This document shows positions 2,469 to 64,000 of a stretch of 64,000 nucleotides of DNA, piece by piece. The stretch comes from Dehalococcoidia bacterium (GTDB lineage: Bacteria; Chloroflexota; Dehalococcoidia; UBA6926). The number at the start of each line of letters is the position of its first letter. Position 1 is the first letter of the stretch. Where the stretch lies: assembly GCA_009841045.1 (NCBI GenBank), contig VXMO01000010.1, positions 6,544 to 70,543 on the forward strand, given 5' to 3'. A program made the translations under genes and the position numbers. A model generated the notes under the pieces. It saw nothing but the letters and a program-made list of their open reading frames with translations. It searched no databases and was not told the origin of the DNA.

Positions 2469-2478
2469 GCGGATCCCG

Positions 2479-2904
2479 ATGTTTGTTCTTGACACCAACG
2501 TGGTGTCGGAGTTGATGAGGGAGCATCCGAACGACGGTGTCTTGGCATGGGTGGATAGCCAAGTCGCGGAAACACTGTTCGTCACTGCCGTCACGGAGGC
2601 CGAGATTCGGACGGGCATCGCGATTCTGCCCGACGGCCAGAGGCGGCGTCTGTTGAATGACGCCGCCGAGCGCGCTTTTGGGGTCTATTTCAGTAACCGC
2701 ATCCTGGCGTTTGACAGTGGGGCCGCTCAGCTCTATGCCCTGATTGCCGCTGACAGGAGGGCTGCGGGGCGCCCCATAAGCCAAGCCGATTGCCAGATCG
2801 CGGCCATAGCCCGGTCGCACGGCAGCGCAGTTGCAACCAGGAATGTAGACGACTACACGGGGTGCGGTATCGAGGTGTTCGACCCCTGGTCCGCACGAGT
2901 CTAG
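2479..2904 (+). CDS. vapC: PIN-domain ribonuclease toxin, VapC/FitB.
   Basis: 141 aa. Begins MFVLDTNVVSEL with the conserved acidic residues of a PIN domain; paired with the upstream RHH gene. Confidence 0.8.
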   Translation: MFVLDTNVVSELMREHPNDGVLAWVDSQVAETLFVTAVTEAEIRTGIAILPDGQRRRLLNDAAERAFGVYFSNRILAFDSGAAQLYALIAADRRAAGRPISQADCQIAAIARSHGSAVATRNVDDYTGCGIEVFDPWSARV

Positions 2905-2918
2905 TTGGCGGCGGTCAC

Positions 2919-3950: not shown

Positions 3951-4018
3951 TCAATCGCCTGCTTTACGGGCGGGGAGGCGTCCGCCTACGATTTGCCTAT
4001 ACCGTTCGAGTCGGCGCT

Positions 4019-4813: not shown

Positions 4814-4837
4814 CAACAGCGGGGAAGCGGGGGACTT

Positions 4838-5614: not shown

Positions 5615-5657
5615 GAGCGGCAGTCGGCAAGCGTCTGCGGTAACAAGACCTGATCTG

Positions 5658-7160: not shown

Positions 7161-7230
7161 CCGGTGCCTCCTCGCGGCGTGCAGACATGGTTTCCCGCCA
7201 CAGGAGCACCGGCTGCGCGAGTCCGCGAGG

Positions 7231-7252
7231 AGACATGAGAGAACTCATGTCT
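7231..7252. promoter_or_regulatory. Perfect 9-bp palindrome AGACATGAG-AGAA-CTCATGTCT in the methyltransferase upstream region (candidate operator).
   Basis: Lies 71 nt upstream of the MTase start codon, in the divergent intergenic region. Confidence 0.25.
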
Positions 7253-7426
7253 TTACGCGGATTTCACGCAAAAACGACTCGCGCAAACGGTTTTGTGAAC
7301 CGGTTGCTCCTGTGGCACGGATATTCTGCTAGAGGCGCGGGTCGTGTGTCAATGACGGTGCTTGTCGCACACGGCCCTCCCACTTGTGGGTGAGGGGGGA
7401 GTTGTGGCCCTTGCGGGCCACGGGAT

Positions 7427-7451
7427 GGATTCCGGCCTACGCCGGAATGAC
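7427..7451 (+). repeat. Hairpin repeat, variant copy: GGATTCCGGCCTACGCCGGAATGAC.
   Basis: Same element as at 13317, 15541 and 15591. Stem substitutions are compensatory, so the hairpin is preserved. Confidence 0.6.
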
Positions 7452-7572
7452 GGTGGGGGGGCGGCTCGTGTCTTTTGCCAGGTTCACCCTTCGACAAGCT
7501 CAGGGTGAACGGGCGTGTTGGAGTGATGGGGTGGGGTATACTTACGTCAAGACAGTTTTTGAAACGGTTCAA

Positions 7573-8301
7573 ATGATTAGGAGGTGCCCTACGGCCCCCG
7601 ATACACAAAGCTCGGCCTCGACTGATGAGCTCCGCCCGTGGCGCGAGGGCAGCGAGCGCATCGCCATCTTCATCGACGGTAGCAATCTCTATCACGCCCT
7701 TGAGGAATCCTGCGGACGGACTGATCTCGATTTCGCGGCATTCATCCAGTGGATCGCGGGCGAGCGTCCGCTCTTCCGCACGTATTACTACAACATCATC
7801 CAAGATGAGAAACGCCGCCCTGCCGAGTTCCAGCAGCAGCAACGCTTCTTGCAGGCTCTGAACCTGATTCCCTATTTGGAGACCCGCTTTGGCACGACGC
7901 GCATCCGCGACGGCCAGGTGGTTGAAAAGGGCGTGGATATCATGCTCGCCACGGACCTGCTGTACTACGCGTGGCAGGACTATTACGACATGGCGGTGCT
8001 GGTGTCCGGCGACGGCGATTTCGCCTATGCCATCCAGACGCTTAAGAACCTCGGCAAGTACGTGCAGGTCGTGACGTTCGAATCGAATCAGTCGCCTGAT
8101 CTCTGGGACAAGGCTGATCTGCGCACGCTGCTCACGCCGGACCTGGTTGCGCAGGAGAACCTGTGGGTGAACAAGGAGCCGGCGCGGAAGAGGCGGCGTC
8201 GAACGACGACCGGAACGACGCGCCGGACTACTCGGAAGTCTACAGCTTCGACATCCTCAACATCATCAAACGGCCGGGCGGAGGCTGTGGCGGCGCAGTA
8301 G
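7573..8301 (+). CDS. NYN domain (LabA/PIN-like) protein with an Arg/Thr/Ser-rich C-terminal tail.
   Basis: RIAIFIDGSNLYHA...VLVSGDGDFAYAIQ is typical of NYN domains. Start set at ATG 7573. The longer track ORF from 7384 reads through the hairpin repeat (IPAYAGMT), which is probably non-coding. Confidence 0.65.
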   Translation: MIRRCPTAPDTQSSASTDELRPWREGSERIAIFIDGSNLYHALEESCGRTDLDFAAFIQWIAGERPLFRTYYYNIIQDEKRRPAEFQQQQRFLQALNLIPYLETRFGTTRIRDGQVVEKGVDIMLATDLLYYAWQDYYDMAVLVSGDGDFAYAIQTLKNLGKYVQVVTFESNQSPDLWDKADLRTLLTPDLVAQENLWVNKEPARKRRRRTTTGTTRRTTRKSTASTSSTSSNGRAEAVAAQ

Positions 8302-8312
8302 CCGTTCCTCAG

Positions 8313-10343
8313 CTAACCCAGGTCGCCTTGATCACGGCCTGTGGCGTCCCTGAACGGGGAATCGCTCCACGGGAAGATGTTGGCGGCGGTTTCCAGCAAG
8401 GGGAAGTCATCTCCGGGATGGAAGACGGCGACGCCATTCGCCGTGCCAACCCACAGGTTGCCGTCTCGATCAAGCAAGAGTTCATTGACGCGATTGCTCG
8501 GCAACGGTGTTGACTCCGCCGTATAGACCATCCAGAGCTCGTCGTTCACAAGCCCAACGAGGCCGCCGTCCGTGCCGACCCAATAGCGGCCCGTTTCCGT
8601 ATCTTCGGCGAATGAGCGGACGTTGTCGTTGGGGAGGCGTCCATTGGCCCGATTCAACTTGATCCACTGCTGGCCGTCATAGATAGCGACTCCATCACCG
8701 ATGGTTCCGAACCACATGCGGCCCTGGCTGTCTTCACGGGAGGCAAGGACGAGGTCGGTGCGGATATCGGCGTTCTCCGTTTTCAGGCTGTTCCAGATGC
8801 CGTTGTCGAAGATGTTGATGCCCTGCCAGTGCGTGAGCCAGACGCGACCCGCGGAATCTTCCGTGACAACACTGATGATGTTGGTGTTCAGGCCGTCGCC
8901 GCGGTTGTAGAGCGTCCATTCGCCGTCTTCAAGCACGGCCGCGCCGAGGCCGGTGGCAAACCACACCCGGTCCTGGCTGTCGTAGTAGACGTTGAAGAGG
9001 GAGTTGCTGGGAAGTTGCTGCTCCCCTTCGACATCACCGAACCTGTCGTATTCGGTCCATTCACCATTGTCATAGACAGAGCCGCCGCTGAGTGTGGACA
9101 TCCAGACGCGTCCGTGTTTGTCCTCCGCGAGGCCGGTCACGTATCGATAGGCGAGGCCGCTGTTGAACTGGGTAAAGGTCTCCCAAACACGGCCATCAAA
9201 CTTGGCGACGCCCTGGGACGTGGCCACCCAGATGTTGCCTTGGCTGTCTTCAAGGAGCCCGTAAACATCGTTGGCGGGGAGGCCGGTTTCCGCCGGAAAG
9301 AGCCATTCATACGTCTCTTCCTCGGGGTCATATATGGTGACGCCACCGCCGTAGGTCACGATCCAGAGAGTGCCGTCCTCGTCCCAATGCAAGTCCTCAA
9401 CGAAATGGTGGGAGAGTTCGCGCTGCCTGACCCTGAGCGGTTCAGTGAACAAAGTCCCATCAAAGGTTGCAATGCCGGCTTCCGTGCCTACCCAGAGGAT
9501 TTCTTCATCGTTGACGGCGTCTTCATCCGGCGTCTGGAAAACGAGGGCCGTTACGAAGTTGGACGGCATGCCCTCCAGGACTGTGTACGGGTCTTCTCTC
9601 CATTCACCATCGGCATGCAGAACGTTCAGGCCACCGCCGTACGCGCCGATGTACAGATCGCCATCGGAGTTTTCAAGGAAAACGCGGATCTCGTTTGCGG
9701 CCAGGGGGCTGTTTTCTGCTGTGTAGACGGTGCGCTGTCCGTCTGCATCGAACACCACTGCACCGCCCTTTGATCCAACCCAGATGCGGCCCTCAGAGTC
9801 CTCGTAGAAGGTCCAGATACGATCGTCAGGAAGGCCGTTATCCAAGTTGAATGACGTCCATTCACCATCTTCAAGGATGCGGATGCCCTCGCCCCACGTG
9901 CCGACCCATGTCCGGTCCTGACTGTCGAGCAGGAGCGCGGAGACAAACACGTCATCCAGCCCAAGTTCCCCGTCTTGATCAAGGCGCGACCATTGGCCCT
10001 CTTCAAGAACGACGATGCCCTTCTCGGTTCCGACCCAGACGACGCCATGCGGATGGTAGATGAACGACGTGGTGCGCGCGGTGATGCCGCTGTTGGTGGC
10101 GTTGTAGGTGATGAGCGCCCCGTCGTCGTACAGGGACGCGCCGTTTTCGAAGCTCGCGAACCACTTGCGCCCATGGACGTCTTCATAGACTTCCGTGAGG
10201 AACCAGCTGGCGATGCTGGTGTTTTCGACGTTGTAGACGGTCCAAAGGCCGCGGCTTGAATTGGTCTGCTCACCGCCGCCGGCGGCGCCAACGAGGACAA
10301 GCAACGTCAACGACGCCAACGAGATGCCGCGGAATACGTTCAC
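8313..10343 (-). CDS. Secreted protein composed of two-component-regulator beta-propeller (Reg_prop-like) repeats.
   Basis: N-terminal signal peptide. About 14 repeats of the D..G.(I/L)W(V/F)GT..G(L/V) blade motif. No kinase or other output domain. Confidence 0.65.
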   Translation of the reverse strand: MNVFRGISLASLTLLVLVGAAGGGEQTNSSRGLWTVYNVENTSIASWFLTEVYEDVHGRKWFASFENGASLYDDGALITYNATNSGITARTTSFIYHPHGVVWVGTEKGIVVLEEGQWSRLDQDGELGLDDVFVSALLLDSQDRTWVGTWGEGIRILEDGEWTSFNLDNGLPDDRIWTFYEDSEGRIWVGSKGGAVVFDADGQRTVYTAENSPLAANEIRVFLENSDGDLYIGAYGGGLNVLHADGEWREDPYTVLEGMPSNFVTALVFQTPDEDAVNDEEILWVGTEAGIATFDGTLFTEPLRVRQRELSHHFVEDLHWDEDGTLWIVTYGGGVTIYDPEEETYEWLFPAETGLPANDVYGLLEDSQGNIWVATSQGVAKFDGRVWETFTQFNSGLAYRYVTGLAEDKHGRVWMSTLSGGSVYDNGEWTEYDRFGDVEGEQQLPSNSLFNVYYDSQDRVWFATGLGAAVLEDGEWTLYNRGDGLNTNIISVVTEDSAGRVWLTHWQGINIFDNGIWNSLKTENADIRTDLVLASREDSQGRMWFGTIGDGVAIYDGQQWIKLNRANGRLPNDNVRSFAEDTETGRYWVGTDGGLVGLVNDELWMVYTAESTPLPSNRVNELLLDRDGNLWVGTANGVAVFHPGDDFPLLETAANIFPWSDSPFRDATGRDQGDLG

Positions 10344-13297: not shown

Positions 13298-13316
13298 GCG
13301 AGAATTAGGAGCACTG

Positions 13317-13341
13317 GATTCCTGCTTTCGCGGGAATGACG
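13317..13341 (+). repeat. Hairpin repeat copy: GGATTCCTGCTTTCGCGGGAATGAC.
   Basis: Intergenic between the ACAD and the second MaoC gene. One G-U wobble position in the stem. Confidence 0.6.
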
Positions 13342-13355
13342 AGTGGGAGACGAGG

Positions 13356-15496: not shown

Positions 15497-15540
15497 GCGA
15501 CAAGTACGATTATCAGAACTAATCGATATGGACGCTCTCT

Positions 15541-15565
15541 GGATTCCCGCTTTCGCGGGAATGAC
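15541..15565 (+). repeat. Hairpin repeat, perfect copy 1 of a tandem pair: GGATTCCCGCTTTCGCGGGAATGAC.
   Basis: 8-bp stem with a 4-nt loop. Lies between the mutase and the reductase genes. Confidence 0.65.
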
Positions 15566-15590
15566 GAAGGGAGTTGGGACGAGACCCGAT

Positions 15591-15615
15591 GGATTCCCGC
15601 TTTCGCGGGAATGAC
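15591..15615 (+). repeat. Hairpin repeat, perfect copy 2 of the tandem pair.
   Basis: Identical 25-mer, 25 nt downstream of copy 1. Confidence 0.65.
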
Positions 15616-15650
15616 GGAGCAGAGAAGTTAGGAAACAGGGGGTAAGGACG

Positions 15651-51639: not shown

Positions 51640-54600
51640 ATGACAACCGTGCCAGACCGCCCGTCCCGCGTGCTTGTGCTTGGCAGCGGACCGATTGTCA
51701 TCGGCCAGGCCGCTGAGTTTGATTACGCGGGCACGCAGGCCTGCCGCGCTCTCCGCGAGGAGGGCGTTACGTCAATCCTCGTCAACTCCAACCCTGCCAC
51801 GATCATGACTGACCACGAAATCGCGGACGTGGTCTATATCGAACCGCTGACCGTCGAGGCCGTGACACGCGTCATCGAACGGGAGCGGCCCGACGGCCTA
51901 CTGCCAACGCTCGGGGGGCAAACCGGCCTCAATCTCGCAGTCGATCTGTCAGAGGCGGGCGTGCTGGACAAGTACAACGTCCGCCTGCTCGGGACGCCGC
52001 TTGACGCGATACGCACGGCGGAGGACCGTAACCTCTTCCGTCAGATGCTGGATGAGATCGGCGAGCCGGTGCCGGAGAACGAAGTGGTCACCACAGTTGA
52101 GGACGCCCGCAGGGTGGCGGAGCGCCTCGGCCTACCCGTCGTGATTCGCCCCGCCTACACGCTGGGCGGGACGGGCGGGGGCATTGCCTACACTCCGGAG
52201 CAGCTTGATGAGCAGGTTCGCACCGGCCTTTCCTACAGCCCCATCGGCCAGGTGCTGGTTGAGCGCAGCCTGATCGGCTGGAAAGAGATTGAGTACGAGG
52301 TCATGCGCGACGGCGCGGACACAACCATCACCGTCTGCAACATGGAGAACCTGGATGCGATGGGCGTCCACACCGGCGACAGCATCGTTGTCGCGCCCAG
52401 CCAGACGCTGACGGACAAGGAGTACCAGATGCTCCGTTCCGCCAGCCTGAAAATCATCTCCGCACTGGGCATTGAGGGCGGCTGCAACGTGCAGCTCGCG
52501 TTAGAGCCGCATCCGACGATAGCGGGCAATGGGCAGAATGCGGGCTATTCGGAATCGCCCTATTACGTAATTGAGGTGAATCCTCGGGTCAGCCGTTCCT
52601 CGGCGCTGGCGTCCAAGGCAACCGGGTACCCCATTGCGCGTGTGGCGGCGAAGATCGCCGTCGGCAAGCGGCTGGACGAGATTCCCAACGCGGTCACTCA
52701 GGTCACGACGGCGGCATTTGAACCTGCTTTGGACTACTGCGTGGCCAAGATTCCGCGCTGGCCGTTCGACAAGTTCCCGTCCGGCGACCGCTCATTGGGC
52801 ACGCAGATGAAGGCCACGGGCGAGGTGATGGCCATTGACCGCTCATTTGAGGCGGCCCTGCAAAAGGCCGTGCGGTCGCTGGAGGTGGCGGGAGACAGCC
52901 TGCTGTGGGAGCACGGCTCATGGAGCGCGATCTCCGACCCCCTTGAGGAACTGCCGCTTCACCCGAATGACCAGCGGTTATGGGCGCTGATGGCGGCGCT
53001 GCGGCGCGGCGTCTCGCTCGACGATCTCTCCGTGAAGACCGGCGTTGATCCGTGGTTCCTGTACAAGCTGAACGCCATTGTCGGCATGGAGAACAGGCTG
53101 CTAGCGGAGCCGCTGACACCGCGCCTGCTGCGCGACGCAAAGCGCATAGGATTCTCCGACACGCAGATCAGCACGCTGGCGGACCGGCTCCCGGAGCAAG
53201 TCCATGAGCTGCGGCAGGAATGGGACATTCGCCCCGTCTACAAGATGGTGGACACGTGCGCGGCGGAGTTTGAGGCAGCCACGCCGTATTTCTATTCGAC
53301 CTATGAAGAGGAGAACGAGGCGCTGCCGTTGGAGGGGCGGTCAGCGGTCGTCATCGGCAGTGGCCCTATCCGCATCGGACAGGGAATCGAGTTCGACTAC
53401 TGCTCCGTTCACGCTGCGTGGGCTTTGCAGGATGAGGGCGCGGCCAGCATCATCATCAATTCCAACCCGGAGACCGTGTCCACGGACTTTGATACGTCCA
53501 ACCGACTCTATTTCGAGCCGCTCGACGAGGAGGGCGTCGCGTGCGTCCTTGAGAACGAGCGCGTTACGCAGGGAGAGCAAGAGTTATTCCCGCGCACGGC
53601 GGCGCAATTCGGGGGACAGACAGCTATCAATCTGATCAGCCCGCTGAGCAGGCGCGCGTTCACCATCCTGGGCACGCAACCGGCGACCGTCGATCAGGCG
53701 GAGGATCGCCAGCGATTCGACGAGTTCGTCACGACGCTTGGCATCCCGCGCCCGCCCGGCGCGGGCGTGACGTCCATCGAGGAGGGGCTGGCGGTCGCCA
53801 ACTCCGTGGGCTATCCGATTGTCGTCCGGCCAAGCTTCGTTCTCGGCGGGCGGGCGATGGAGATTGTCCATACACCGGCGGAGTTCACGCGCTATGTCAT
53901 GGCGGCGATGGAGGAGGTCGGAGACAACCGCCCCATCCAGGTGGACAAGTTCCTGGAAGGGATGGAGGTGGAGGTGGACGCCGTCAGCGACGGCGAGGAT
54001 GTGCTGATACCCGGGATTATGGAGCATATTGAACGGGCAGGCGTCCACAGCGGCGACTCCATGGCCGTCTACCCTGCCCCCTCGCTGTCTGAGGACGATG
54101 AGCGGCAGATTGTCGATTACACGATCCAGCTTGGCCGCGCATTCGGCATCATCGGGCTGATGAACATCCAGTTCGTTGTTGTGCATAACGAGAACCAGGA
54201 CGGCACGCCCGCGCCGTCCACCGTTTATGTGCTTGAGGTCAACGTGCGCTCCAGCCGGACGGTGCCGTTCATCTCCAAGGTGACCGAAGTGCCGATGGTC
54301 AGCCTCGCCACGCGCGTCATCATGGGACGCACACTCAAAGAGATGGGGCATGAGAGCGGCCTGTGGCCGAAGAAGCCGCTAGTGGCCGTCAAGGCTCCCG
54401 TCTCCTCCATGGCCAAGCTGATGGGCGTAGACACCTATTTGGGACCGGAGATGAAATCCACGGGCGAGGTCATGGGCATCGACACCTCCCTCGCTCCCGC
54501 CCTGACAAAGGCACTGCAGGCGGCGCGGCTCATGCTGCCGCACTCCGGCGGCATCCTCATCAGCGTGTCCGACCGCGAGAAGGCGGAGGTGGTGCCGATT

Positions 54601-54987
54601 GCGCGTCGTTTGGCCGCGCACGGCTACGAGGTCTATGCGACGGAGGGCACCGCGACAATCCTGCGCGCTGTTGGCATTGAGGTTGCAGGCGTTCCGGCCA
54701 AGGTCAGCGAGGGCACCGAGGGCGAGGGCACGACCACGGACCTGATTCGTGACGGTCGCGTGCATGCGGTCGTCAACACCATGTCCGGTAACCGCGTGCC
54801 ATTGAGGGACGGCTTTGAGATTCGCCGAGCGGCCACGGAACAGGGCATTCCCTGCTACACGAGCCTGGACACGTTCCGCGTGGCCGTTGATTCCGTGACG
54901 GGCGGCGCGGAGGCGGGCGAGTACAGCATCATGCGCCTCGATGAATATGTGAACGGCAGACCGGCGGACGACATTCGCGCCTCGTGA
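51640..54987 (+). CDS. carB: Carbamoyl-phosphate synthase large subunit CarB.
   Basis: Duplicated ATP-grasp halves, an oligomerisation domain and a C-terminal MGS-like domain; 1115 aa. Confidence 0.97.
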
Positions 54988-55016
54988 CGCGGTCGCCGTT
55001 GTTATAGCGGAAACCC

Positions 55017-55799
55017 ATGGCCACTTTCGAGACGATTGCACAGGGCATGATCCTTGTGCGCATCGCAGCGTCACGGGTCGCTCGCGCCGCGCAGCCGGGC
55101 CAGTTCGTTCAGCGCCGCGGACATGTCATTGAGGGCTTGGTAAGCGATGACGGCCGCGCCCAAACGACGCCCTTTGACCCGCAGCCCTACCCGATCCTCT
55201 CAGTCGATACGGCGAGCGGAGAAATCGCGGTGCTGGCGGTCACGGACGGCGGGGACGATTCAGCGATTACATCGACACCGACGGGTCTCGAATGGGCCGT
55301 GAGAGGGCCGTTGGGCAAGGCGGTCACAGTTGATCCCGCCGCGAGGCACGTGGCGTTCATCGCGCAAGGGGGTGGCATTGGGTCGCTCATCGCCGTGATG
55401 CGGGAGACTGCCGAACGCGGCGTCCGCGTGACGCTGCTAGCGGGAGCGGAGAATGCCTGGCAGTTGTATCCGTCACACCTGTTGCCGGAGGGCGTGCGCG
55501 AGATGACGGCGACGGACGACGGCTCAGCGGGCATCCGCGCTCCCGTGACCCACCTTCTGCCTCAGATCCAGGATGAGGCGGACGTACTCATCGCATCCGG
55601 CCCGCCAAAGCTGTACGCGGATCTGGCGCGCATGCGCGCCGACGGGCTGCTGACGATTCCAACGACGGTTCTGGTCTTGCCACAACTCGAGTGCCGCGAC
55701 GGGCAATGCGGAGCATGCGCCGTCCAGACGGCTGACGGTTCGCGGTTCGCTTGTGTTGAGGGGCCGGCGTTTGACCTGGATGAGGTGGAGTGGAGTTAG
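55017..55799 (+). CDS. pyrK: Dihydroorotate dehydrogenase electron-transfer subunit PyrK-like (FAD/NAD-binding, 2Fe-2S).
   Basis: GGGIG NAD-binding motif and a C-terminal C-x4-C-x2-C...C cluster (CRDGQCGACAVQ...CVEGP). No pyrD follows. Confidence 0.65.
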   Translation: MATFETIAQGMILVRIAASRVARAAQPGQFVQRRGHVIEGLVSDDGRAQTTPFDPQPYPILSVDTASGEIAVLAVTDGGDDSAITSTPTGLEWAVRGPLGKAVTVDPAARHVAFIAQGGGIGSLIAVMRETAERGVRVTLLAGAENAWQLYPSHLLPEGVREMTATDDGSAGIRAPVTHLLPQIQDEADVLIASGPPKLYADLARMRADGLLTIPTTVLVLPQLECRDGQCGACAVQTADGSRFACVEGPAFDLDEVEWS

Positions 55800-55831
55800 G
55801 CCGCCCACCAGTTCATTCGTCGACCTTGCGG

Positions 55832-56851
55832 CTAGCGTGTCGGCAGTTGAATGATTGCGCTGCCGCGCACGCACGGCCTTTCGCCGCTGCCCTCGCTCCA
55901 CAGTTCAAGCTCGACAAGGGCCGTGCCATCATCATCTCGCCATTTCCGCGCGACGCGGCCGTAATGCATGATCGTCTCGCCGATGAACGCCGGGGAGCGG
56001 ACCTCTCCGCGGAAATGGCGCAGGATGCCGCGCCGTCCCATCCAACGCGTTGCGGTTTGGGACAGCATGTCCCCGGAGAGATCACCCTGCGCGATCCGCT
56101 CCGGCAGTCCCTCAACCTGCGCATAAGCGCGGTCATAGTGGATCAGGTGGCTGTTGGTCTTGACGAGGCCGTAGAAGAAGACCTGGACGGTTGAGATGAA
56201 ACGTGGCAACGGCGTCAGTTCATCGCCCTCGTCAACGTCTTCCCAGACCGGTTCGTCCGTCCACTGAGGCGGCTCGGCAGACCGCGCTTGTGAGCCGTTC
56301 TCAAGTTGTAAATCGCCCCAATTACGCCTCGTGCCGCCCGATGACGACGGCTGGGGTACAGTGGCCGTCGTGGTGCGGTCAATCATCACTGTGCGACCGT
56401 GCTGGTTCGTGATGGTCATCTCCTTGGTGGTGAAGATCATCGCGCCTGAGCGTCCCTGCTTCTCCTCAACGTCCGTGACCGTCGATTGGCGCGTGAGAAC
56501 ATCGCCGGGCCTGATGGGTTCAATGAACGTCACGTCCGTGCCCGTGTAACGTGACTGCGCGCCGGGGATGCGGAGTTGGAGAGGGTCATTGCGCGTATCC
56601 GGCAGGCCGTCAGGGCGCAGGTCTGCGATGGAGGTTGGCGGGAAGCTGGTGAACCCGGTGAAGAGCGGCGGGGCGACGATGCCGCCGTAGGGGCCGCCTT
56701 TGGCGCGCTCCGCGTCGACGTATGAAGGTCGCACGTCATCGACGGCGTAGGCGTAGCGGGCGATCTCATCAAACGTGATGGGCGGACGGGATTCCGGTTC
56801 GGATGTCCGTCCGAGCAACTCCCGCGCCGCCAGCAGCGCCTCGCTTGCCAT
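55832..56851 (-). CDS. Double-hotdog FAS1-like/MaoC-like dehydratase.
   Basis: A MaoC_dehydrat_N-like N-terminal half plus a C-terminal MaoC hotdog half; 339 aa. Confidence 0.6.
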   Translation of the reverse strand: MASEALLAARELLGRTSEPESRPPITFDEIARYAYAVDDVRPSYVDAERAKGGPYGGIVAPPLFTGFTSFPPTSIADLRPDGLPDTRNDPLQLRIPGAQSRYTGTDVTFIEPIRPGDVLTRQSTVTDVEEKQGRSGAMIFTTKEMTITNQHGRTVMIDRTTTATVPQPSSSGGTRRNWGDLQLENGSQARSAEPPQWTDEPVWEDVDEGDELTPLPRFISTVQVFFYGLVKTNSHLIHYDRAYAQVEGLPERIAQGDLSGDMLSQTATRWMGRRGILRHFRGEVRSPAFIGETIMHYGRVARKWRDDDGTALVELELWSEGSGERPCVRGSAIIQLPTR

Positions 56852-56919
56852 ACGTGTCCGCCTTGATGACTTCTGTGAGTACCCAGCAAGGATACGCCAG
56901 CCATGGCAGGAATGTTTGG

Positions 56920-57384
56920 CTAGCGTGGACGGACGAAGTGCGTGGAGTTGACCAGCGCGAGCAACCTGCCGTTGTCGTCGGTAACTCTCGTGGAGGCCAC
57001 CATCAGGGTTCTGCCCGGATGCGTAACGGTGGACTCAGCTACCAGGGTGCCCTCCTGGGTGTTCCCGACGATTTGGCTGGAGACTGAAACTGCCACGGGT
57101 ATTTCATCCTCATCAAGCTCGCCGCGATAGGCAGCCAGTGTCGCCCACGTCGCCGCGCTGTCTGCAAGAGACACCATGACCCCGGCGTGAACGAACGGCA
57201 ACAGCGCGTACACGCCATCACTAACCGGGGCTTCCACGATGACGCGCTCCGGCCCCGCTTCTCGAATTCGCATCTTCAGGTTGTCCATGAGCGTCCCGTC
57301 ATCGATGCGCTCGTTGAGCCACACGGCGAGCTCTTGCGGTGACAGGTCCTTCGGCAGCTTGTCCATAGAAAGATCCCTTTCCAA
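56920..57384 (-). CDS. PaaI/4HBT-family hotdog thioesterase.
   Basis: 154 aa; HAGVMVSLADSA hotdog thioesterase motif. Confidence 0.7.
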   Translation of the reverse strand: MERDLSMDKLPKDLSPQELAVWLNERIDDGTLMDNLKMRIREAGPERVIVEAPVSDGVYALLPFVHAGVMVSLADSAATWATLAAYRGELDEDEIPVAVSVSSQIVGNTQEGTLVAESTVTHPGRTLMVASTRVTDDNGRLLALVNSTHFVRPR

Positions 57385-57505
57385 CTGTCATCCTCTTGCA
57401 CCAACAGCCTGACACTCTCGGGGGCTTGGTTCTATCCGTTTCTGGTTTCTTAGTCGCACGCAACCTTAGCCCGCGGGAGTATCCGTTGCCCACGCGCTAC
57501 GTCGT

Positions 57506-57528
57506 GTGGCACAGTGAGCGCCATGACT
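57506..57528 (+). repeat. R1 direct repeat, copy 1: GTGGCACAGTGAGCGCCATGACT.
   Basis: Identical 23-mer recurs at 58607-58629. Both copies cover the translation start of a + strand gene. Confidence 0.6.
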
Positions 57529-58035
57529 TTTCCGATTGAACCGGCAGGCCACGACGCCTGCCCGGACGTCATCGAACTGATCCACCGAGTCTACGACGAA
57601 TACGGCTTTATCTGGGACCCCGAGGATGAGCTCCGGGATCTGCTGACCCAGGAGCACGCCTTTCCTTACCGCGCGCCGATCGGCGCGATGTGGATCATGC
57701 GCGACGAGTCCGGTACGGTCGTCGGTTCGATCGCGGCCAATCGGATTGACGGACCGACCGTCGAGCTGCACCGCCTCTATCTCGACGCTCACCTGCGCGG
57801 ACAGGGCTTGGGCCGCCGGCTCGTCGAGACGGCTGTCGAGTGGGCTCGGGATCACGGAGCCTGGCGGATCGAGCTCTGGTCCGACACGCGTTTCGCAGAC
57901 GCCCATCGGCTCTATGAGCGCCTCGGTTACGTCAAGTCGGCCAGGCGCACGCTAGATGACGTCAACGACACGGTGGAGTTCAAGTACGAGCGGAAACTTA
58001 CGGACTCTGACGGTCAAGACTCCCCGGAACATTGA
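57514..58035 (+). CDS. GNAT family N-acetyltransferase.
   Basis: RGQGLGRRLVE acetyl-CoA binding motif. Start is GTG 57514 or ATG 57523, both inside the R1 repeat. Confidence 0.8.
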   Translation: MSAMTFPIEPAGHDACPDVIELIHRVYDEYGFIWDPEDELRDLLTQEHAFPYRAPIGAMWIMRDESGTVVGSIAANRIDGPTVELHRLYLDAHLRGQGLGRRLVETAVEWARDHGAWRIELWSDTRFADAHRLYERLGYVKSARRTLDDVNDTVEFKYERKLTDSDGQDSPEH

Positions 58036-58065
58036 CCCTGATCACTGAGCGCGGGAGATGGAGAG

Positions 58066-58266
58066 TCAGGCGGTCTGGAATTGGACTTGAGAGAGGTCAA
58101 TAGTTGATGACCGCTTTGACAGATGCAGCAACTCGATTCCAACAACGTCATGGGCCTGATTGTAGTCCAGGATGATGCCCGGCGCGACTTGCTCCGTCAT
58201 GACAATCTCCGAATCGTCAAGGTAGAGGTAGAGGGCGTCGGCGTCTTTATCAACTTCGAGCTTCAT
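58066..58266 (-). CDS. DUF2283 family protein (antitoxin-like partner).
   Basis: MKLEVDKDADALYLYL is typical of DUF2283; 66 aa. Confidence 0.65.
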   Translation of the reverse strand: MKLEVDKDADALYLYLDDSEIVMTEQVAPGIILDYNQAHDVVGIELLHLSKRSSTIDLSQVQFQTA

Positions 58267-58523
58267 AGCTGGCCTCTCATCCTATGGTCAAAGAATACTG
58301 TTACCACTCGCCATGGTACAAGACGCGTATTAACTGCCACCAATAGAACCCGATCGCCGAACTCGGGGATAGGACACAAGAAGAGTTCCACCACGGGATC
58401 TTCGGGATCCTGAACCCTTGAAACGGGCTGCGCGATCACTCTCTCCACCCATTCTCTGGGTATCTTTCGCAGGTTCATTCTTGTGACTGCGTGGTGGGAG
58501 AACTCTAAGGGGGGTTGCTGCAT
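58263..58523 (-). CDS. DUF4258 family protein (toxin-like partner).
   Basis: Start at the internal ATG (MQQPPLEFSHHAVTRM...); the longer track ORF is upstream read-through. Overlaps the DUF2283 gene by 4 nt. Confidence 0.55.
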   Translation of the reverse strand: MQQPPLEFSHHAVTRMNLRKIPREWVERVIAQPVSRVQDPEDPVVELFLCPIPEFGDRVLLVAVNTRLVPWRVVTVFFDHRMRGQL

Positions 58524-58590
58524 GACTCCAGTAGTGTACGCGGGGGTATTGGATTGTGCCCTCTCCGTCCCCACGCTGTCGTAGCGTTGC

Positions 58591-61032
58591 GTGAATCGAG
58601 GGAATGGTGGCACAGTGAGCGCCATGACTACGACAAATAGCGAGAACACGGCGCTTGGGCACCTGAAGGTCGTTGAGCTTGGAGGCGGGACGGGCGCGGC
58701 GGCGATGGCGGGGCGGCTGCTTGCAGACATGGGCGCGGACGCTGTGCTCGTTGAGCCGCCCGGCGGGGTCGGGGCGCGAGGTATCGGCCCGTTTGCCAAC
58801 GATGTTGACGATCCTGACCGCAGCCTGACGTTTCTCGACCACAACATCAGCAAGCGCTCCGTGGTTCTTGATCTCGATACGCCAGATGGGCAGGAGTCCG
58901 TTCGCCGCCTTGCCTCATGGGCTGACGTGCTAATCGAGTCGCATGAACCCGGGTATCTTCCAGAGCGCGGCTTGGGCTACGAGAACCTTGCAGATATCAA
59001 CCCCGAACTCGTCTACGGTTCGCTGACGCCGTTCGGCCAGACGGGGCCGTTTGCGAATTACGCATCGACGGAATTGATCATCCAGTCACTGGCGGGGGAT
59101 CCATGGGTCTACGGCGACGATGAGCGCGCGCCGGCGATGGTGCCCGGAGAGGCCACCGCCCGCATCGGCTCCATGCACCTTGTGTACGGCATCCTGCTGG
59201 CGCTGCGGGAGCGACGTTGGTCGACGCGCGGGCAGCACGTGGACGTTTCACAGCAAGACATCGGTGTCTGGCAGCTGGTGAGCGGCAGCATCTCCCGCGT
59301 CGGGCTGCGGAATGAGGTGTTTCGCCGCCCCGGCAAGGCATCTACCGGCATCGGCAGTATCTATCACTGCGCGGACGGCGTCATTCAGTTTTTCCCGTCC
59401 ACGAACGCGCAGTTCCGCGGCCTGGTCACGGGCTGGATGCAGGACTCCACGTTCGACGACGAGGCCTGGGACGACACGAATTTCCGCCGCGACAACTACG
59501 ACATCATCGACGTCCGCATGAGAGAGTTCATGGGCAAGTTGACGGCTGCGGAGATCGAGGAAAGCGCCGCCATCCATGACGTGCCGATGGCGCGCCTGTC
59601 CACCATGGCGGAGTTCGTTGAGCACCCGCATACCGTAACCCGCCAGTTCATTGTCGATGCGAGCCACCCTGTTGTCGGCGACTACCGCGCGCCCGGCCCG
59701 CCGTACCGGTTCAAGGGGACGCCGTGGGCGATTCATCGCCCTGCTCCACGCATCGATGAGCATGGCGATGAACTGCGCAAGATGATCGAGGGGCTATCGT
59801 CAACGCCGCCCGATCCGACCAAATACGTTGCGCGGCGGCACGACCGGCGCAAGCAGCCGCTTGAAGGCATTCGCATTGCCGACCTGAGCCGTGTGTTTGC
59901 CGGGCCCTTTGGCACGATGCTGCTGGGATTCCATGGCGCGGAGGTCATTCGGATAGAGTCGGAGGACCTGCCGGCTTTCAGGATGCCGATGCAGCCGAAC
60001 TACCCGGAACTGAACCGCAACAAGCAGTGCGTGACCATCGACATGCGCTCAAAGAAGGGGCAGGAACTCATCAAGGGCATCGTCGCACAGTCGGATGTCG
60101 TTGTTGAGAACTTCCGCCCCACCGTCATGGAGCGCATGGGGCTTTCCTACGAGGAGCTGCGCAAGGTTCGCCCGAATGTGATTATGGCATCTATGTCCGG
60201 GTACGGTATGGATGGTCCGATGCGAGACCGACCTGCTTTCGGGCAACTGCTGATGGCCTTCGGCGGGCTGTCATACATGTGGGGGCATCCTGAGAGCGAT
60301 ATCGATACGCGCCCCAAGAATGCGTATTCCGACTTCACGCTCGGCGCGCAGGCGGCGATGGCCGTGATGATGGCGCTGGAGCACCGCGACCGGACCGGCG
60401 AGGGGCAGCACATCGAGAGTTCCCACGTTGAGGGGCTGGCGGCACTGCTGGGGCCGGAGATGCTGCGCTACCTGATCAACGGTGAAAGCCCGCAGCCGCG
60501 CGGCAACGCGAGTGACATCTACGCTCCGCACGGCGTGTATCCCTGTTTGGGTCACGACGCGTGGGTTTCTATCGCGGTCGAGAACGATGAGCAGTGGGGC
60601 AAGCTGGTTGCGGTGATGGACGAGCCGACGTGGGCGAATGACGGCAAGTTCGCGACGCAGGAGAATCGGCTCGCCAACCGCGCCGAACTGGATGAGCGCC
60701 TGAGCGGGTGGACCTCGGAACGGTGGGCGGGACAGGTGCAGGTTGCGCTGCAGGCCGTCGGCGTGCCGTGCGGCGCGGTGCAGAACCCGCTGGGCCTGCT
60801 TGCCGATCCGCAGCTGCAGCATCGCGGGACCATCGTGACAGCGCACCACGACCCGGACTGGTGGGGCACGATGCAGCACCCCGGCGTTTCACTGCACCTG
60901 AGCGCGACGCCCGGCTGGGCGACGGACTCCACGCCCGGCCTCGGCCAGGACAATGATCGCGTCTTCAAGCAGCTTCTCGGGCTGACCTCCGCAGAGATAG
61001 AGGCGCTAACGGCGGAGGGGGTTTTGAGATAG
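58591..61032 (+). CDS. Tandem-fused family III (CaiB/BaiF) CoA-transferase with two complete domains.
   Basis: Two successive CoA_transf_3-like halves: LKVVELGGGTGAAAMAGRLLADMGADAV...HEPG... and IRIADLSRVFAGPFGTMLLGFHGAEVIRIE...NFRP.... 813 aa. Confidence 0.8.
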   Translation: MNRGNGGTVSAMTTTNSENTALGHLKVVELGGGTGAAAMAGRLLADMGADAVLVEPPGGVGARGIGPFANDVDDPDRSLTFLDHNISKRSVVLDLDTPDGQESVRRLASWADVLIESHEPGYLPERGLGYENLADINPELVYGSLTPFGQTGPFANYASTELIIQSLAGDPWVYGDDERAPAMVPGEATARIGSMHLVYGILLALRERRWSTRGQHVDVSQQDIGVWQLVSGSISRVGLRNEVFRRPGKASTGIGSIYHCADGVIQFFPSTNAQFRGLVTGWMQDSTFDDEAWDDTNFRRDNYDIIDVRMREFMGKLTAAEIEESAAIHDVPMARLSTMAEFVEHPHTVTRQFIVDASHPVVGDYRAPGPPYRFKGTPWAIHRPAPRIDEHGDELRKMIEGLSSTPPDPTKYVARRHDRRKQPLEGIRIADLSRVFAGPFGTMLLGFHGAEVIRIESEDLPAFRMPMQPNYPELNRNKQCVTIDMRSKKGQELIKGIVAQSDVVVENFRPTVMERMGLSYEELRKVRPNVIMASMSGYGMDGPMRDRPAFGQLLMAFGGLSYMWGHPESDIDTRPKNAYSDFTLGAQAAMAVMMALEHRDRTGEGQHIESSHVEGLAALLGPEMLRYLINGESPQPRGNASDIYAPHGVYPCLGHDAWVSIAVENDEQWGKLVAVMDEPTWANDGKFATQENRLANRAELDERLSGWTSERWAGQVQVALQAVGVPCGAVQNPLGLLADPQLQHRGTIVTAHHDPDWWGTMQHPGVSLHLSATPGWATDSTPGLGQDNDRVFKQLLGLTSAEIEALTAEGVLR
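58607..58629 (+). repeat. R1 direct repeat, copy 2 (identical 23-mer), at the start of the CoA-transferase gene.
   Basis: See copy 1 at 57506-57528. Confidence 0.6.
60976..61021 (+). repeat. R2 direct repeat, copy 1 (3' end of the CoA-transferase CDS).
   Basis: 46 nt, 42/46 identical to 61690-61735. Confidence 0.55.
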
Positions 61033-61073
61033 AGGTGAACTGTGGGCTTAGCCGAGTGCCCTATACTCTTGTT

Positions 61074-61325
61074 ATGAATACCAGTGACGAGTTGCTCAAA
61101 CGGATTACAGCGCGTCCCGATGTCTTTGGCGGCAAGCCAATCATTCGCGACATGCGTATCTCCGTAGAGTTGATTTTGAGCCTGCTAAGTCAAGGGGAGT
61201 CCGTGGAGAGCATCCTGGATGATTATCCGGGACTTGAGCCTGACGACATCCGGGCTTGCACAGCCTACGCCCACGCGGTGATAGCAGGTGACAGCCTCTC
61301 AGCGGTTTCTGTTGCAGGGTCGTGA
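61074..61325 (+). CDS. DUF433 domain protein (antitoxin-like).
   Basis: PDVFGGKPIIRDMRISVELIL is the DUF433 signature. Start set at ATG 61074. Confidence 0.65.
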   Translation: MNTSDELLKRITARPDVFGGKPIIRDMRISVELILSLLSQGESVESILDDYPGLEPDDIRACTAYAHAVIAGDSLSAVSVAGS

Positions 61326-61678
61326 GGTTTCTCGTTGATCGGTGTGCCGGTCGGCGATTAGCTGAGTGGTTACGCTCCGAAGGGCACGATGTCTTTGAAG
61401 CGATTCAAGTCAATCCAGACCCGGGAGACCAGGCACTCCTGGAACTTGCGGCAACTCAAAATCGAGTCTTCATCACTATTGACACTGATTTTGGTGAACT
61501 GATTTTCCTCCACGGAGTGGCTCATGCGGGACTGGTCCGCCTGCCTGATGTCCCATCAGAGCGGCGAATCGAGTTGATGACAGAAATCATTACACGCTAC
61601 AGCACTCAGTTAGAGGAGCGCGCCATCATCACAGTAACTGGCAATCGTATAAGGATTACGCCCAGTACAGTTAACTGA
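61322..61678 (+). CDS. DUF5615 / PIN-like (Mut7-C-like) protein (toxin-like).
   Basis: MRFLVDRCAG...FITIDTDFG acidic-residue pattern of PIN-like DUF5615. Overlaps the DUF433 gene (GTGA). Confidence 0.65.
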   Translation: MRFLVDRCAGRRLAEWLRSEGHDVFEAIQVNPDPGDQALLELAATQNRVFITIDTDFGELIFLHGVAHAGLVRLPDVPSERRIELMTEIITRYSTQLEERAIITVTGNRIRITPSTVN

Positions 61679-61689
61679 AGTGAGAGGCG

Positions 61690-61735
61690 CTCGGCCTCAC
61701 CTCCGCAGAAATAGAGGCGCTAGCGGCGGAGGGGG
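61690..61735 (+). repeat. R2 direct repeat, copy 2 (non-coding remnant of the CoA-transferase 3' end).
   Basis: See copy 1 at 60976-61021. Confidence 0.55.
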
Positions 61736-61796
61736 TATTGCCGTAAGAGGAGAGCTAGTAAAATGGCTTGAGCAATAGTTATATCGGGGGAATATT

Positions 61797-62939
61797 GTGC
61801 GAATTTCGCGTCCAGCCGTCGAGATCATTCAAGGGAATCTCAAACTCTATCTCACTTACCTGACCCCACGGGACTTGGATGAGGAAGGTTTCTACGAAGT
61901 AGACAAGCTGGATGCCACGCCCGGCGCAAGCAAAGGCTACCAGAGGATCTTGAACGAACGCCGTGTCGGTGCACTCGACCGCTACTTGAGGGAGGCGCAC
62001 GAGCACGGCTATGCGAATCTTCCAACCACAGTCTTCTTGGCTACCGAAGGTAAGGTAAGGTATAACGAAGATAAGGGAGTGATTTCCTTTGATACAAAGA
62101 ATGTTTGCCCATTTAATGTTGTCGATGGCCAGCATCGAATTGAGGGGCTTCGCCGAGCGAGCAGGACGGACAATGACCTTCGATCATTTCGGCTCCCTGT
62201 AACTATTGCCACTGGCCTCGATGAGGCCCACCAGATGTACCATTTCTTTGTAGTGAATACAACACAGGTTCCTGTTGATCAGTCGCTACAGCAACAAATA
62301 GCCGCTAGATTCGAAGACATGAATCGGGTGGAGAAACTCCCATACATTCCACATTGGCTTCAGCATCGAGTGCACACAGGACGGGATCAACGGGCTCTGC
62401 AAATTGTCACAAAGCTCAATACTCATCGAAAATCCCCTATGAAGGGCCGTATACAGATGGCCAACGATCCAGAAGGTGGCCGCAATAAGATCAAGCAATC
62501 CTCAATTGTGAAGATCATACAAGATCAGGTGTTGACCTCAGGCAATCCACTTGAAGGCAACGAAACCTCCGCGGACGTCCAAGGGAACATTCTATTGAAC
62601 TTGTGGATTGCCATCGACAAACTCTTCGTCGATGGTCGAAATAGAGATGACACTGTAATCTACAAGAGCAACGGCCTATTTTGGGGCTTTGGCATTTCGA
62701 GATGGGTTTTCAACGTGCTCTACTCAAGCACAGATAACTTTACTGTCGATTCCATAACAAAGACGATTCAACAAGGGCTCGACGAGTTACCTGATGAGGC
62801 GGCGGCTATAGCAAGCCCTGATTGGTGGCTGTCCGGTGGAGGAAGGGCCAGTGCTCTGAACAGAGCTAATGCGCGGGTTTACATTGAAGCCTTCAGACAA
62901 GGTCTCGCGAAGGCTCGAAACCGCGAGATTCGGGTATGA
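61797..62939 (+). CDS. DGQHR domain protein (DndB family). Low GC.
   Basis: NVVDGQHRIEGL contains the eponymous DGQHR motif. GTG start with a GGGGGA Shine-Dalgarno; 380 aa; GC about 50%. Confidence 0.75.
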   Translation: MRISRPAVEIIQGNLKLYLTYLTPRDLDEEGFYEVDKLDATPGASKGYQRILNERRVGALDRYLREAHEHGYANLPTTVFLATEGKVRYNEDKGVISFDTKNVCPFNVVDGQHRIEGLRRASRTDNDLRSFRLPVTIATGLDEAHQMYHFFVVNTTQVPVDQSLQQQIAARFEDMNRVEKLPYIPHWLQHRVHTGRDQRALQIVTKLNTHRKSPMKGRIQMANDPEGGRNKIKQSSIVKIIQDQVLTSGNPLEGNETSADVQGNILLNLWIAIDKLFVDGRNRDDTVIYKSNGLFWGFGISRWVFNVLYSSTDNFTVDSITKTIQQGLDELPDEAAAIASPDWWLSGGGRASALNRANARVYIEAFRQGLAKARNREIRV

Positions 62940-63268
62940 TTCTTAGAGCACTGACCTCAGAAATGACTGATCGGGTGGCATTCCGCCTGAATCATTTGCG
63001 CTTTGTACCCGAGGAGTCGGGCTGCTATGCACTGGCAAGCATTGACGAAATCGTTCTCTATGTGGGAAAGACCACGAACTTACATCGCAGGCTAGAAGAT
63101 CACTTGTCCGATCCCGAAAAAACTGGCATCACACCCAGCGGTAGAGCGGTTTGGTTTTACTACGGATTCTGGCCAGAAGAACGCATCGAACATGTCGAGA
63201 TGCAACTCTTGCGCGATCACAAGATGGTTGAGGGCGTCTGGCCAATATTGAACAAGACTGGCCCTTGA
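62936..63268 (+). CDS. Small GIY-YIG nuclease domain protein.
   Basis: GCYALASIDEIVLYVGKTTNLHRRLEDHL matches GIY...YIG plus the conserved Arg/Glu region. ATG overlaps the DGQHR stop (ATGA). 110 aa. Confidence 0.75.
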   Translation: MILRALTSEMTDRVAFRLNHLRFVPEESGCYALASIDEIVLYVGKTTNLHRRLEDHLSDPEKTGITPSGRAVWFYYGFWPEERIEHVEMQLLRDHKMVEGVWPILNKTGP

Positions 63269-63283
63269 CTTGGATGCGACAGG

Positions 63284-63829
63284 ATGTCCAAGTTGCGCAA
63301 GCTCATACTCTATTCGGCGATGAGCCTGGACGGATATATCGCGGGGCCGAACGGTGAGATTGATTGGCTGGATGCGGCAGGCGTTGACAGCGATTACGGT
63401 TACGGGGATTTCTACGGCTCCATCGATACCACGCTGATGGGGCGCGCCACCTACGAGATCTCGCAGACCGTGGATGAGTTCCCCTACCCGGATAAGACCA
63501 ACTATGTCTTCACCCGGAACTCCGCCCTGGCTGACACGGCGCGTGTCCGCTTCATCACCAGCGACGTGGTCGACTTTACTCGACGCCTCAAGGAAGAGGC
63601 CGGCGGAGACATTTGGCTGGTTGGCGGAGGCCAGATCAACGCAATCTTGCTGAACGCGGAACTAATCGATGAGGTGATTCTAACGGTCTTTCCACTGCTC
63701 CTTGGCGACGGCATTCCGCTGTTTGCTCCGGGCGCCCGTCGCACAGCTTTCACAACTATTGGGTGCCACACATATGAGAGCGGCATCATCCAATGGCATT
63801 TGACACCCGCATACGAGCCAGCATCATAG
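63284..63829 (+). CDS. Dihydrofolate reductase family protein (RibD C-terminal domain-like).
   Basis: LILYSAMSLDGYIAGPNGEIDWL...WLVGGGQ. Confidence 0.8.
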   Translation: MSKLRKLILYSAMSLDGYIAGPNGEIDWLDAAGVDSDYGYGDFYGSIDTTLMGRATYEISQTVDEFPYPDKTNYVFTRNSALADTARVRFITSDVVDFTRRLKEEAGGDIWLVGGGQINAILLNAELIDEVILTVFPLLLGDGIPLFAPGARRTAFTTIGCHTYESGIIQWHLTPAYEPAS

Positions 63830-63874
63830 CGGCAGGCGTATACAATCACACGACAACGAGAGGAAAACGCTTCC

Positions 63875-64000
63875 ATGCCAAACATTGAGTTCTATCACTG
63901 GACGACTTGAAACACGTGCAAGACGGCGAAGGCGGCGCTTTCGCAGGCAGGGCATGAGTTTGCTGAGCGTGACTTCTTCAAGGACCGGTTCAGCAAGGAT
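63875..64000 (+). CDS. ArsC/Spx-family thioredoxin-fold protein, 3'-truncated, with an in-frame TGA at 63908-63910 at the first Cys position of the CxxC motif (candidate selenoprotein).
   Basis: ATG 63875 has a GAGAGGA Shine-Dalgarno. Translation is MPNIEFYHWTT-(TGA)-NTCKTAKAALSQAGHEFAERDFFKDRFSKD. The frame stays open to the window end and aligns with the Spx/ArsC start YxxxxCxxCRKAxxxL, with U replacing the first Cys. Confidence 0.5.

Follow-up and report, generated by a model that had tools for sequence, protein, structure and literature searches.

How the last codons of a gene come to stand a second time behind the genes that follow it is the question raised by the 64-kb stretch of contig VXMO01000010.1 from a Dehalococcoidia bacterium analysed here (hereafter the window; coordinates are window positions, and L-numbers denote the compared loci and contigs). 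The gene encodes a double-domain CoA-transferase of the CoA_transf_3 family. Between the two copies of its 3′ end lie two small genes, DUF433 and DUF5615, which are a putative type II toxin-antitoxin (TA) pair by bioinformatic criteria: they are co-oriented, share a 4-nt stop/start overlap (GTGA, 61322-61325), and the same pairing is also present in L034 and L035. A sequence-only reading of the window had explained the repeat as a duplication of the gene's own end during insertion of the TA pair. The comparisons reported here point to a different origin, and the repeat is probably an ordinary recombination scar, formed between alternative versions of a hot spot that came from different lineages.

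A repeat search of the 64-kb window returned one family at this place, a direct repeat of 51 nt at 60976-61026 and 61690-61740 with 46/51 identical positions (90%), which contains and extends the 46-nt repeat (42/46) described earlier. Its degenerate core of 38 nt occurs exactly twice in the window, against 0 occurrences expected from 100 shuffles. Translated in the frame of the gene, copy 1 reads LGLTSAEIEALTAEGVLR-TAG and copy 2 reads LGLTSAEIEALAAEGVLP-TAA; the frame is kept in both through one extra codon and the stop, and the total match is 48/57 nt. Copy 2 begins 11 nt past the DUF5615 stop and is bounded upstream by an in-frame TGA (61681-83), where the similarity to the CoA-transferase ends abruptly, at about 61687. 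Because this TGA closes the frame and the similarity stops there, copy 2 is a short non-coding remnant located directly after the DUF433/DUF5615 pair, in agreement with the sequence-only reading. The window arrangement contains a single new joint, at about 61686-61689, which is the left border of copy 2.

The retention of the reading frame and of a stop codon would also be expected if copy 2 were the last piece of a second CoA-transferase gene that had otherwise been deleted. The abrupt end of the similarity at about 61687, with the in-frame TGA just upstream, speaks against such a paralog; in addition, the variable region holds no other sequence derived from a CoA-transferase, and no relative carries two copies of the gene at the locus, so that this origin appears extremely unlikely. 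A longer pseudogene, of which copy 2 would be a piece, is ruled out, since the CoA-transferase similarity is confined to the 57-nt stretch. An assembly artefact is also ruled out by three more identical assemblies from two samples: scaffold L025 from ENA and Logan contig L026 are 100% identical to the window over 53797-64000 (10.2 kb), and L027, from the second sample, is identical over the junction of DUF5615, copy 2 and the DGQHR gene that follows.

The two copies appear to differ as two functional alleles of different lineages would, an argument from 57 nt of sequence and therefore a weak one. Of the five differences in the 51-nt repeat, four are synonymous changes at third positions (P=0.045 if random), and the fifth replaces Thr by Ala, a variant that five orthologs carry naturally. 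Among the seven variant codons of copy 2, four (GGC, CTC, GCG, and GTA) are found in functional orthologs, and three (GAA, CCG (Arg), and TAA) differ by a single base from ortholog codons. The gene end most similar to copy 2 is that of L012 (50/57), and the one most similar to copy 1 is that of L001 (52/57), while the copies match each other at 48/57 positions. The third-position difference between them (4/17) is similar to the divergence at 4-fold sites between lineages (0.25-0.34), and the occurrence of at most one change in 34 first and second positions would have a probability of about 0.005-0.03 if copy 2 had evolved neutrally after the window and L024 separated. Because the differences are synonymous or allelic, copy 2 would have been part of a working gene of another lineage until fairly recently, and the claim that the gene duplicated its own 3′ end when the TA pair was inserted is not supported. 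The direction may also be the opposite, with copy 2 native and copy 1 acquired from elsewhere; the sliding identity of the CoA-transferase gene to its relatives is a mosaic and does not separate donor from recipient.

These same differences bear on an origin in situ, in which the gene's own 57 nt would have been copied upon insertion at a long staggered break, or by a template switch during replication, and copy 2 would have drifted afterwards. Such an event would agree with the repeats found at the 5′ end of CoA-transferase genes (described below), in which the 23-nt copies of the window are identical and those of L017 match at 66/68 positions, and microhomology template switching could also yield the junctions observed. 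On the other hand, random drift should strike first and second codon positions and give indels, while the differences are almost all synonymous and the variants are functional alleles elsewhere; copy 2 is also no closer to copy 1 than to the gene end of L012. A duplication in situ thus seems unlikely.

The orthologous loci show where the alleles could have been brought together. A scan of genome collections provided 18 orthologous loci in metagenome-assembled genomes (MAGs) of Dehalococcoidia, in which the CoA-transferase has 87-97% protein identity; L020, L024, and L028 came from other searches, and L020 was the only gain from a scan of metagenomes for orthologous loci. The flanks are collinear, with about 80-90% nucleotide identity, and two sites, upstream and downstream of the CoA-transferase gene, are hypervariable. 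The downstream interval, from the CoA-transferase stop to an ArsC-like gene, ranges from 602 to 2840 bp over 20 orthologous loci and carries shuffled cargo of at least six modules (Table 1); the conserved homologous genes on its borders, the CoA-transferase and the ArsC-like one, have 80-97% identity in these 20 loci. The accessory modules have a G+C content of 46-55%, against 60-70% for the core.

Two of the downstream arrangements are especially close to that of the window. Behind the CoA-transferase gene of L028, which ends in ...LGLTSTEIEALTAEGVLR*, come 85 nt, a DGQHR gene with 74% identity to that of the window, and then GIY-YIG, an empty arrangement with respect to the TA pair. The alignment of copy 2 with L028 (score 81; highest shuffle score, 27) starts at CTCGG, includes the stop and extends about 13 nt past it, so that copy 2 passes into the sequence upstream of DGQHR in the way that the true gene end of L028 does. 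In L014 and L024, DUF433 is located directly 3′ of the CoA-transferase gene and beside DGQHR, without DUF5615 or copy 2. The amino acid identity to the window in L014 is 85% for DUF433 and 86% for the CoA-transferase, and DUF433 of L024 has 85% nucleotide identity; the divergence of DUF433 in both loci is about the same as that of the CoA-transferase. No remnants of copy 2 or DUF5615 were found in the spacers of L024 and L014, where local alignments were no better than shuffles. Because L014 and L024 show the one arrangement and L028 the other, the window joins a CoA-transferase/TA arrangement to a CoA-transferase/DGQHR arrangement. In comparison with the relatives, the TA pair behaves like an indel with the gene end on either side, and L028 is the relative with an empty site.

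From these observations we infer the following route. The interval between the CoA-transferase and ArsC-like genes and the stretch just upstream of the CoA-transferase gene are recombination hot spots, at which related Dehalococcoidia lineages differ in their small accessory modules, which include TA pairs, candidate defence genes and metabolic genes that have strayed there. DNA of a lineage with CoA-transferase followed by DUF433-DUF5615 would have been combined with the arrangement of CoA-transferase followed by DGQHR and GIY-YIG, as in L028. This would require homologous recombination in a conserved flanking gene and one illegitimate join, located within the CoA-transferase gene of one parent, 57 nt from its 3′ end; one allele of the last 18 codons would stay in the intact gene, and the allele of the other parent would be stranded behind the TA pair. 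Two forms of the event would fit equally: homology-facilitated illegitimate recombination of a linear fragment, or a fragment that was illegitimately re-circularised and then integrated by a single crossover in a short shared segment. Both processes have been described, in Streptococcus pneumoniae, Acinetobacter baylyi, Pseudomonas stutzeri and Escherichia coli (PMC3240628, PMC2884548). Illegitimate joints of this kind are marked by 3-10 bp of microhomology, and in E. coli, where re-circularised fragments had been integrated by a single crossover, direct repeats arose from the duplication of 109-950 bp of the homologous locus (PMC3240628).

Microhomology of this extent is present at the other end of the gene. 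The sequence-only reading had described a second bracketed block there, and a 23/23 direct repeat indeed surrounds a GNAT acetyltransferase gene and a DUF2283/DUF4258 pair (Table 1). Both gene ends accordingly carry bracketed blocks, as that reading had claimed; the 5′ cargo, with its GNAT gene, is not of the TA kind. In other Chloroflexota, the GNAT gene has its native locus in the order GroES-GroEL-CoA_transf_3-GNAT-nuoABCD. Its native start in L030, AACGCGCCATGACC, and the CoA-transferase start, GTGAGCGCCATGACT, have 10 nt in common, and this 10-nt microhomology, GCGCCATGAC, lies at 57518-57527, exactly at the 5′ joint. Because GNAT homologs begin with MTF.IEP, the ATG ACT shared with the CoA-transferase gene is the GNAT gene's own start. 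The similarity to the native 3′ flank of the GNAT gene reaches about 20 nt beyond its stop, to GCGCGGG, and the similarity to a DUF2283 flank of the L011 type starts at GCGGGAG, which leaves a 5-nt microhomology, GCGGG, at the second junction (58051-58055). The DUF2283/DUF4258 pair is located upstream of the CoA-transferase gene in L011 without the GNAT gene (blastn). The left limit of the 23-nt repeat is the point where two alternative upstream contexts cease to be homologous. The 5′ block would have been assembled in the same way as the 3′ arrangement, with microhomology of 10 nt and 5 nt at its junctions when compared with L030/L031 and L011. As a side observation, the native GNAT genes (L030 4001-4495; L031 4001-4513) are located between a divergent 380-aa CoA_transf_3 gene and the nuoABCD operon, and the window GNAT copy precedes a different CoA-transferase gene, whose start codon it borrows.

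Gene-end duplications were also found in two relatives. L017 carries the CoA-transferase upstream region and start codon twice, as 68-nt repeats (66/68) on either side of a single gene; the encoded membrane protein, of 264 aa, begins at the duplicated ATG and has no homologs among the compared loci. In L010, a 56-nt repeat of the 5′ end of the ArsC-like gene surrounds a RibD_C gene, and the displaced copy has TAA where the ArsC-like gene has TGA. The recurrence proposed from the sequence alone therefore stands as a pattern; its restriction to TA cassettes does not, given the GNAT, membrane-protein and RibD_C cargo. In the downstream hot spot, a sensitive scan detected gene-end remnants in only 2 of the 20 loci, despite widely differing cargo, while 18 of the 20 swapped downstream modules without any repeat. 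The duplication is an occasional by-product, which would arise only if the illegitimate joint falls inside the conserved gene and the other parent gives an intact end. The remaining 64-kb window contains no other bracketed cassette, its other repeats being palindromes similar to repetitive extragenic palindromic (REP) elements and unrelated to gene ends. One of these, an intergenic palindromic repeat with an 8-bp stem, TGGATTCCCGCTTTCGCGGGAATGACG, occurs at 13314-13342, 15539-15567, and 15590-15616 as a REP-like dispersed element, and its three copies surround a block of two genes for proteins of 154 and 554 aa.

The recurrence also invites a site-specific explanation, in which the gene ends would be attachment sites for a recombinase encoded elsewhere and small circular cassettes, each with a copy of the site, would integrate into them. 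The direct repeats are derived from gene ends and surround inserts beside an intact target gene, four events at three gene ends were found in about 20 genomes, and two of the 5′ events lie within 2 nt of each other. Against it, no recombinase domain was detected in the called genes about 8 kb on either side (L024/L025); the repeats measure 23, 56, 57, and 68 nt, and no motif is common to the three sites; the 23-nt repeat has its left limit just where the homology of the two upstream contexts ends; the junctions match the native GNAT locus by microhomology; and 18 of the 20 loci exchanged modules without a repeat. We regard integration of this kind as improbable, and the end-of-gene-targeting insertion mechanism of the sequence-only reading finds no support in the variable repeat lengths, the lack of a recombinase, attC or shared motif, the 5′ microhomology junctions and the rarity of remnants. 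A dedicated cassette-shuffling system of these streamlined Dehalococcoidia, encoded in trans, which would insert small promoterless gene units precisely at the translation starts and stops of conserved genes, is very unlikely; if true, it would fuse an incoming gene to a host start codon and regenerate the end of the host gene, and would be integron-like without attC. A transposon target-site duplication was rejected, with duplications of 23-68 nt, no inverted repeats at the cassette ends in the repeat search and no transposase by Pfam.

Copy 2 could also have persisted because it is useful, by terminating the TA operon or by serving DGQHR as its native upstream region, which would account for its good preservation; this proposal concerns retention and is compatible with a scar as the origin. 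Both copies contain a 7-bp stem (CCTCCGC/GCGGAGG) in which no difference falls, and copy 2 with the bases that follow is the natural DGQHR upstream context in L028. Orthologs such as those of L007, L010, and L024 do not keep the stem, the T-run is broken in copy 2, a terminator scan makes no call, and the fold is no better than that of shuffles (RNA z -1.4 and -1.15; DNA z -0.02 to -1.2), so that a retained function is highly improbable. The duplicated segments had been suggested as possible hairpin or attC-like recombination sites; this candidate was rejected, as RNA and DNA folds of both copies on both strands were no better than shuffles (DNA z -0.02 to -1.17). No promoter or terminator was called on the repeats, and no Rfam family was assigned to them, the sole match, mir-58, being a chance one with 34 bits against a gathering score of 76.

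Several points weigh against a scar between two lineages. The allele argument is based on just 57 nt, which makes the derivation of the repeats from two parental molecules a weak one. A parental sequence downstream of the window DUF433-DUF5615 pair was not found; the nearest DUF5615 is 72% identical, and the nearest DUF5615 contexts are unrelated, a defence island in L034 and a short contig in L035. The microhomology comes from the junctions of the 5′ cassette and not from that of copy 2. Classical homology-facilitated illegitimate recombination mostly deletes recipient DNA and does not duplicate it (PMC3240628), and a single crossover would have a low efficiency in a shared segment of 23 or 57 nt with about 90% identity. 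The two independent 5′ junctions, in the window and in L017, lie at most 2 nt apart at the start codon, and microhomology explains that of the window only. Finally, L014 and L024, which have DUF433 and DGQHR without DUF5615 or copy 2, require extra independent events or deletions. A recombination scar remains, with these reservations, the probable origin of the repeat.

A scar of this kind can be compared with several known systems. Genomic islands located at the 3′ ends of tRNA, tmRNA or protein genes are flanked by direct repeats of the gene end. As in the window, the targeted gene remains whole, and a short second copy of its end lies beyond the insert; the window differs in the lack of an integrase, the variable repeat length, the small inserts of 0.6-1.1 kb and the microhomology at junctions. 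Its cassettes hold only DUF433 and DUF5615, or GNAT, DUF2283 and DUF4258, with no recombinase gene by Pfam, and the repeat at the same 5′ site differs in extent between the window (23 nt) and L017 (68 nt). Integron gene cassettes, TA cassettes included, are likewise small, often promoterless units of one or two genes that are stacked and may have TA cargo. In contrast to them, the repeats described here have no attC-like palindrome and no IntI, and they are ends of host genes that differ by site; no GTTRRRY was found at the repeat ends, and no recombinase domain that would indicate an integron integrase was present in the Pfam tables of the neighbouring genes.

The likeness to homology-facilitated illegitimate recombination lies in the homology on one side, the illegitimate microhomology join on the other and the foreign DNA of about 1 kb, and the likeness to single-crossover integration of a re-circularised fragment lies in the direct repeats, copied from the homologous locus, that come to stand on both sides of the insert. 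The present case differs from both in that it comes from natural genomes only and in that it duplicates 23-68 nt, against 109-950 bp. In Rhs, contact-dependent inhibition (CDI) and type VI secretion system (T6SS) effector-immunity arrays, C-terminal displacement leaves orphaned 3′ ends (PMC5361080). There too a module is inserted beside a conserved gene and the old gene end remains downstream as a relic; for those arrays, in which old modules accumulate, this recombination mechanism has also been proposed (PMC5361080). The displaced sequence of the window differs, being 18 conserved codons of a metabolic enzyme without a toxin domain or a cognate immunity gene, and 5′ ends are affected as well; the likeness is an analogy of process only.

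Table 1. Features of the window locus and cargo of the two hypervariable sites in relatives
Feature	Position	Strand	Remarks
Left 23-nt copy, GTGGCACAGTGAGCGCCATGACT	57506..57528	+	Displaced CoA-transferase translation start; now gives the GNAT start codon
GNAT acetyltransferase	57523..58035	+	Pfam; translocated from conserved locus
DUF2283	58066-58266	-	Pfam
DUF4258-like	58263-58478	-	Pfam match under cut-off
Right 23-nt copy	58607..58629	+	Working CoA-transferase start, ATG at 58624
Double-domain CoA_transf_3 (family III CoA-transferase)	58624..61032	+	Pfam; conserved gene at both hot spots
Copy 1	60976..61032	+	CoA-transferase last 18 codons and stop
DUF433, putative antitoxin	61035..61325	+	Pfam, 81 bits (cut-off 23.6)
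DUF5615 / PIN-like (Mut7-C), putative toxin	61322..61678	+	Pfam, 61.9 bits (cut-off 23.8)
Copy 2	61690..61746	+	Apparent displaced non-coding allele of CoA-transferase 3′ end, stop TAA included
DGQHR (DndB/DpdB-like)	61797-62939	+	Pfam, PADLOC; candidate defence pair with GIY-YIG
Small GIY-YIG protein	62936-63268	+	Pfam; no PADLOC match
RibD_C-family reductase	63284..63829	+	Pfam; movable module of hot spot
ArsC/glutaredoxin-like gene, 5′ part	63876..64000	+	Conserved right edge of hot spot; in-frame TGA 63909-63911
Downstream module: DUF4357 protein			Matches PADLOC candidate system PDC-S14
Downstream module: two-gene unit			Function not assigned
Downstream module: DUF433			With or without DUF5615
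Downstream module: DGQHR (DndB/DpdB-like) and GIY-YIG
Downstream module: ParE pair
Downstream module: RibD_C reductase
Upstream of CoA-transferase: 4HBT thioesterase gene			L001, L002, L012, L018, L024
Upstream of CoA-transferase: nothing			Most loci
Upstream of CoA-transferase: DUF2283/DUF4258			L011
Upstream of CoA-transferase: membrane-protein gene			L017
Upstream of CoA-transferase: thioesterase, GNAT and DUF2283/DUF4258			Window

The CoA-transferase has 802 aa when read from the ATG and 813 aa from an upstream GTG. The DUF433-DUF5615 pair of L034, 72% identical to that of the window, is located inside a defence island (146-7839), between DUF1156/DUF499 genes and a PycTM and nucleotide cyclase (Pycsar-like) pair; this context fits a TA pair that travels along with defence genes. 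Truncated forms of DUF433 were observed in L004 (9711-9871) and L016 (10242-10418), and also in L009 (about 9197-9676); those of L004 and L016 share an endpoint, corresponding to about 61273-61278 of the window. The truncated gene is followed by the ArsC-like gene in L004 and by the ParE pair in L016 and L009. These fragments are a further sign of repeated illegitimate joins in the hot spot.

The DGQHR and GIY-YIG genes form a combination that looks, from its sequence, like a two-gene candidate defence module. The overlapping 110-aa GIY-YIG gene is always found 3′ of the DGQHR gene, in several unrelated contexts (window 61797-63268; L014 8815-10304; L024 8001-9472; L028 464-1860; L029 6001-7472), and the module has 250 homologs below E 1e-20. 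The ArsC-like gene at the right edge contains an in-frame TGA in a U-x-x-C context (HWTT-TGA-NTCKTAKAAL) that is kept in all aligned orthologs, as observed in the window, L010 (10403 onward), L001, L011, and L024. A conserved 8-bp hairpin, GCGAAGGC-GGC-GCUUUCGC, is located about 11 nt after this TGA; its fold is not significant against shuffles (z -1.0) and has no Rfam match. The gene is thus a candidate selenoprotein gene with an element resembling a selenocysteine insertion sequence (SECIS).

A third hot spot was observed at 55799-55832, between the convergent genes 55017-55799 and 55832-56851. It is empty in the window, L001, L003, L006, and L016, and holds 580-1050 bp of extra DNA in 12 of 18 relatives, with DUF2283-like sequence in L002 and L005; no direct repeats flanking these indels were detected in the 12 relatives. 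Several kb downstream, tandem direct repeats of about 200-290 nt with about 82% identity are present in L011 (13099-13390/13525-13816) and L017 (13590-13781/14098-14289).

The structure is probably a fresh example of an already known process and points to no new mechanism. It provides a clean natural example of how small accessory genes can be stitched into compact genomes, those of the complete relatives being about 1.9 Mb, without mobile-element machinery. The cargo ranges over TA pairs, candidate defence genes and a core-derived acetyltransferase, and the conserved neighbour gene withstands a break in its coding end, since the lost part is replaced from the other parent. The case also advises caution: where a gene end is found repeated on both sides of a TA pair, its allelic origin and the microhomology at the junctions should be examined before the repeats are taken for att sites or target-site duplications. 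To judge from the sample labels, the sources may be associated with sponges or corals; an enrichment in TA and defence genes, with lateral exchange of these, has been reported for MAGs of sponge symbionts (PMC8163846). For the genomics of sponge symbionts, the locus represents a hot spot of defence and TA genes with at least nine arrangements in 20 related genomes.

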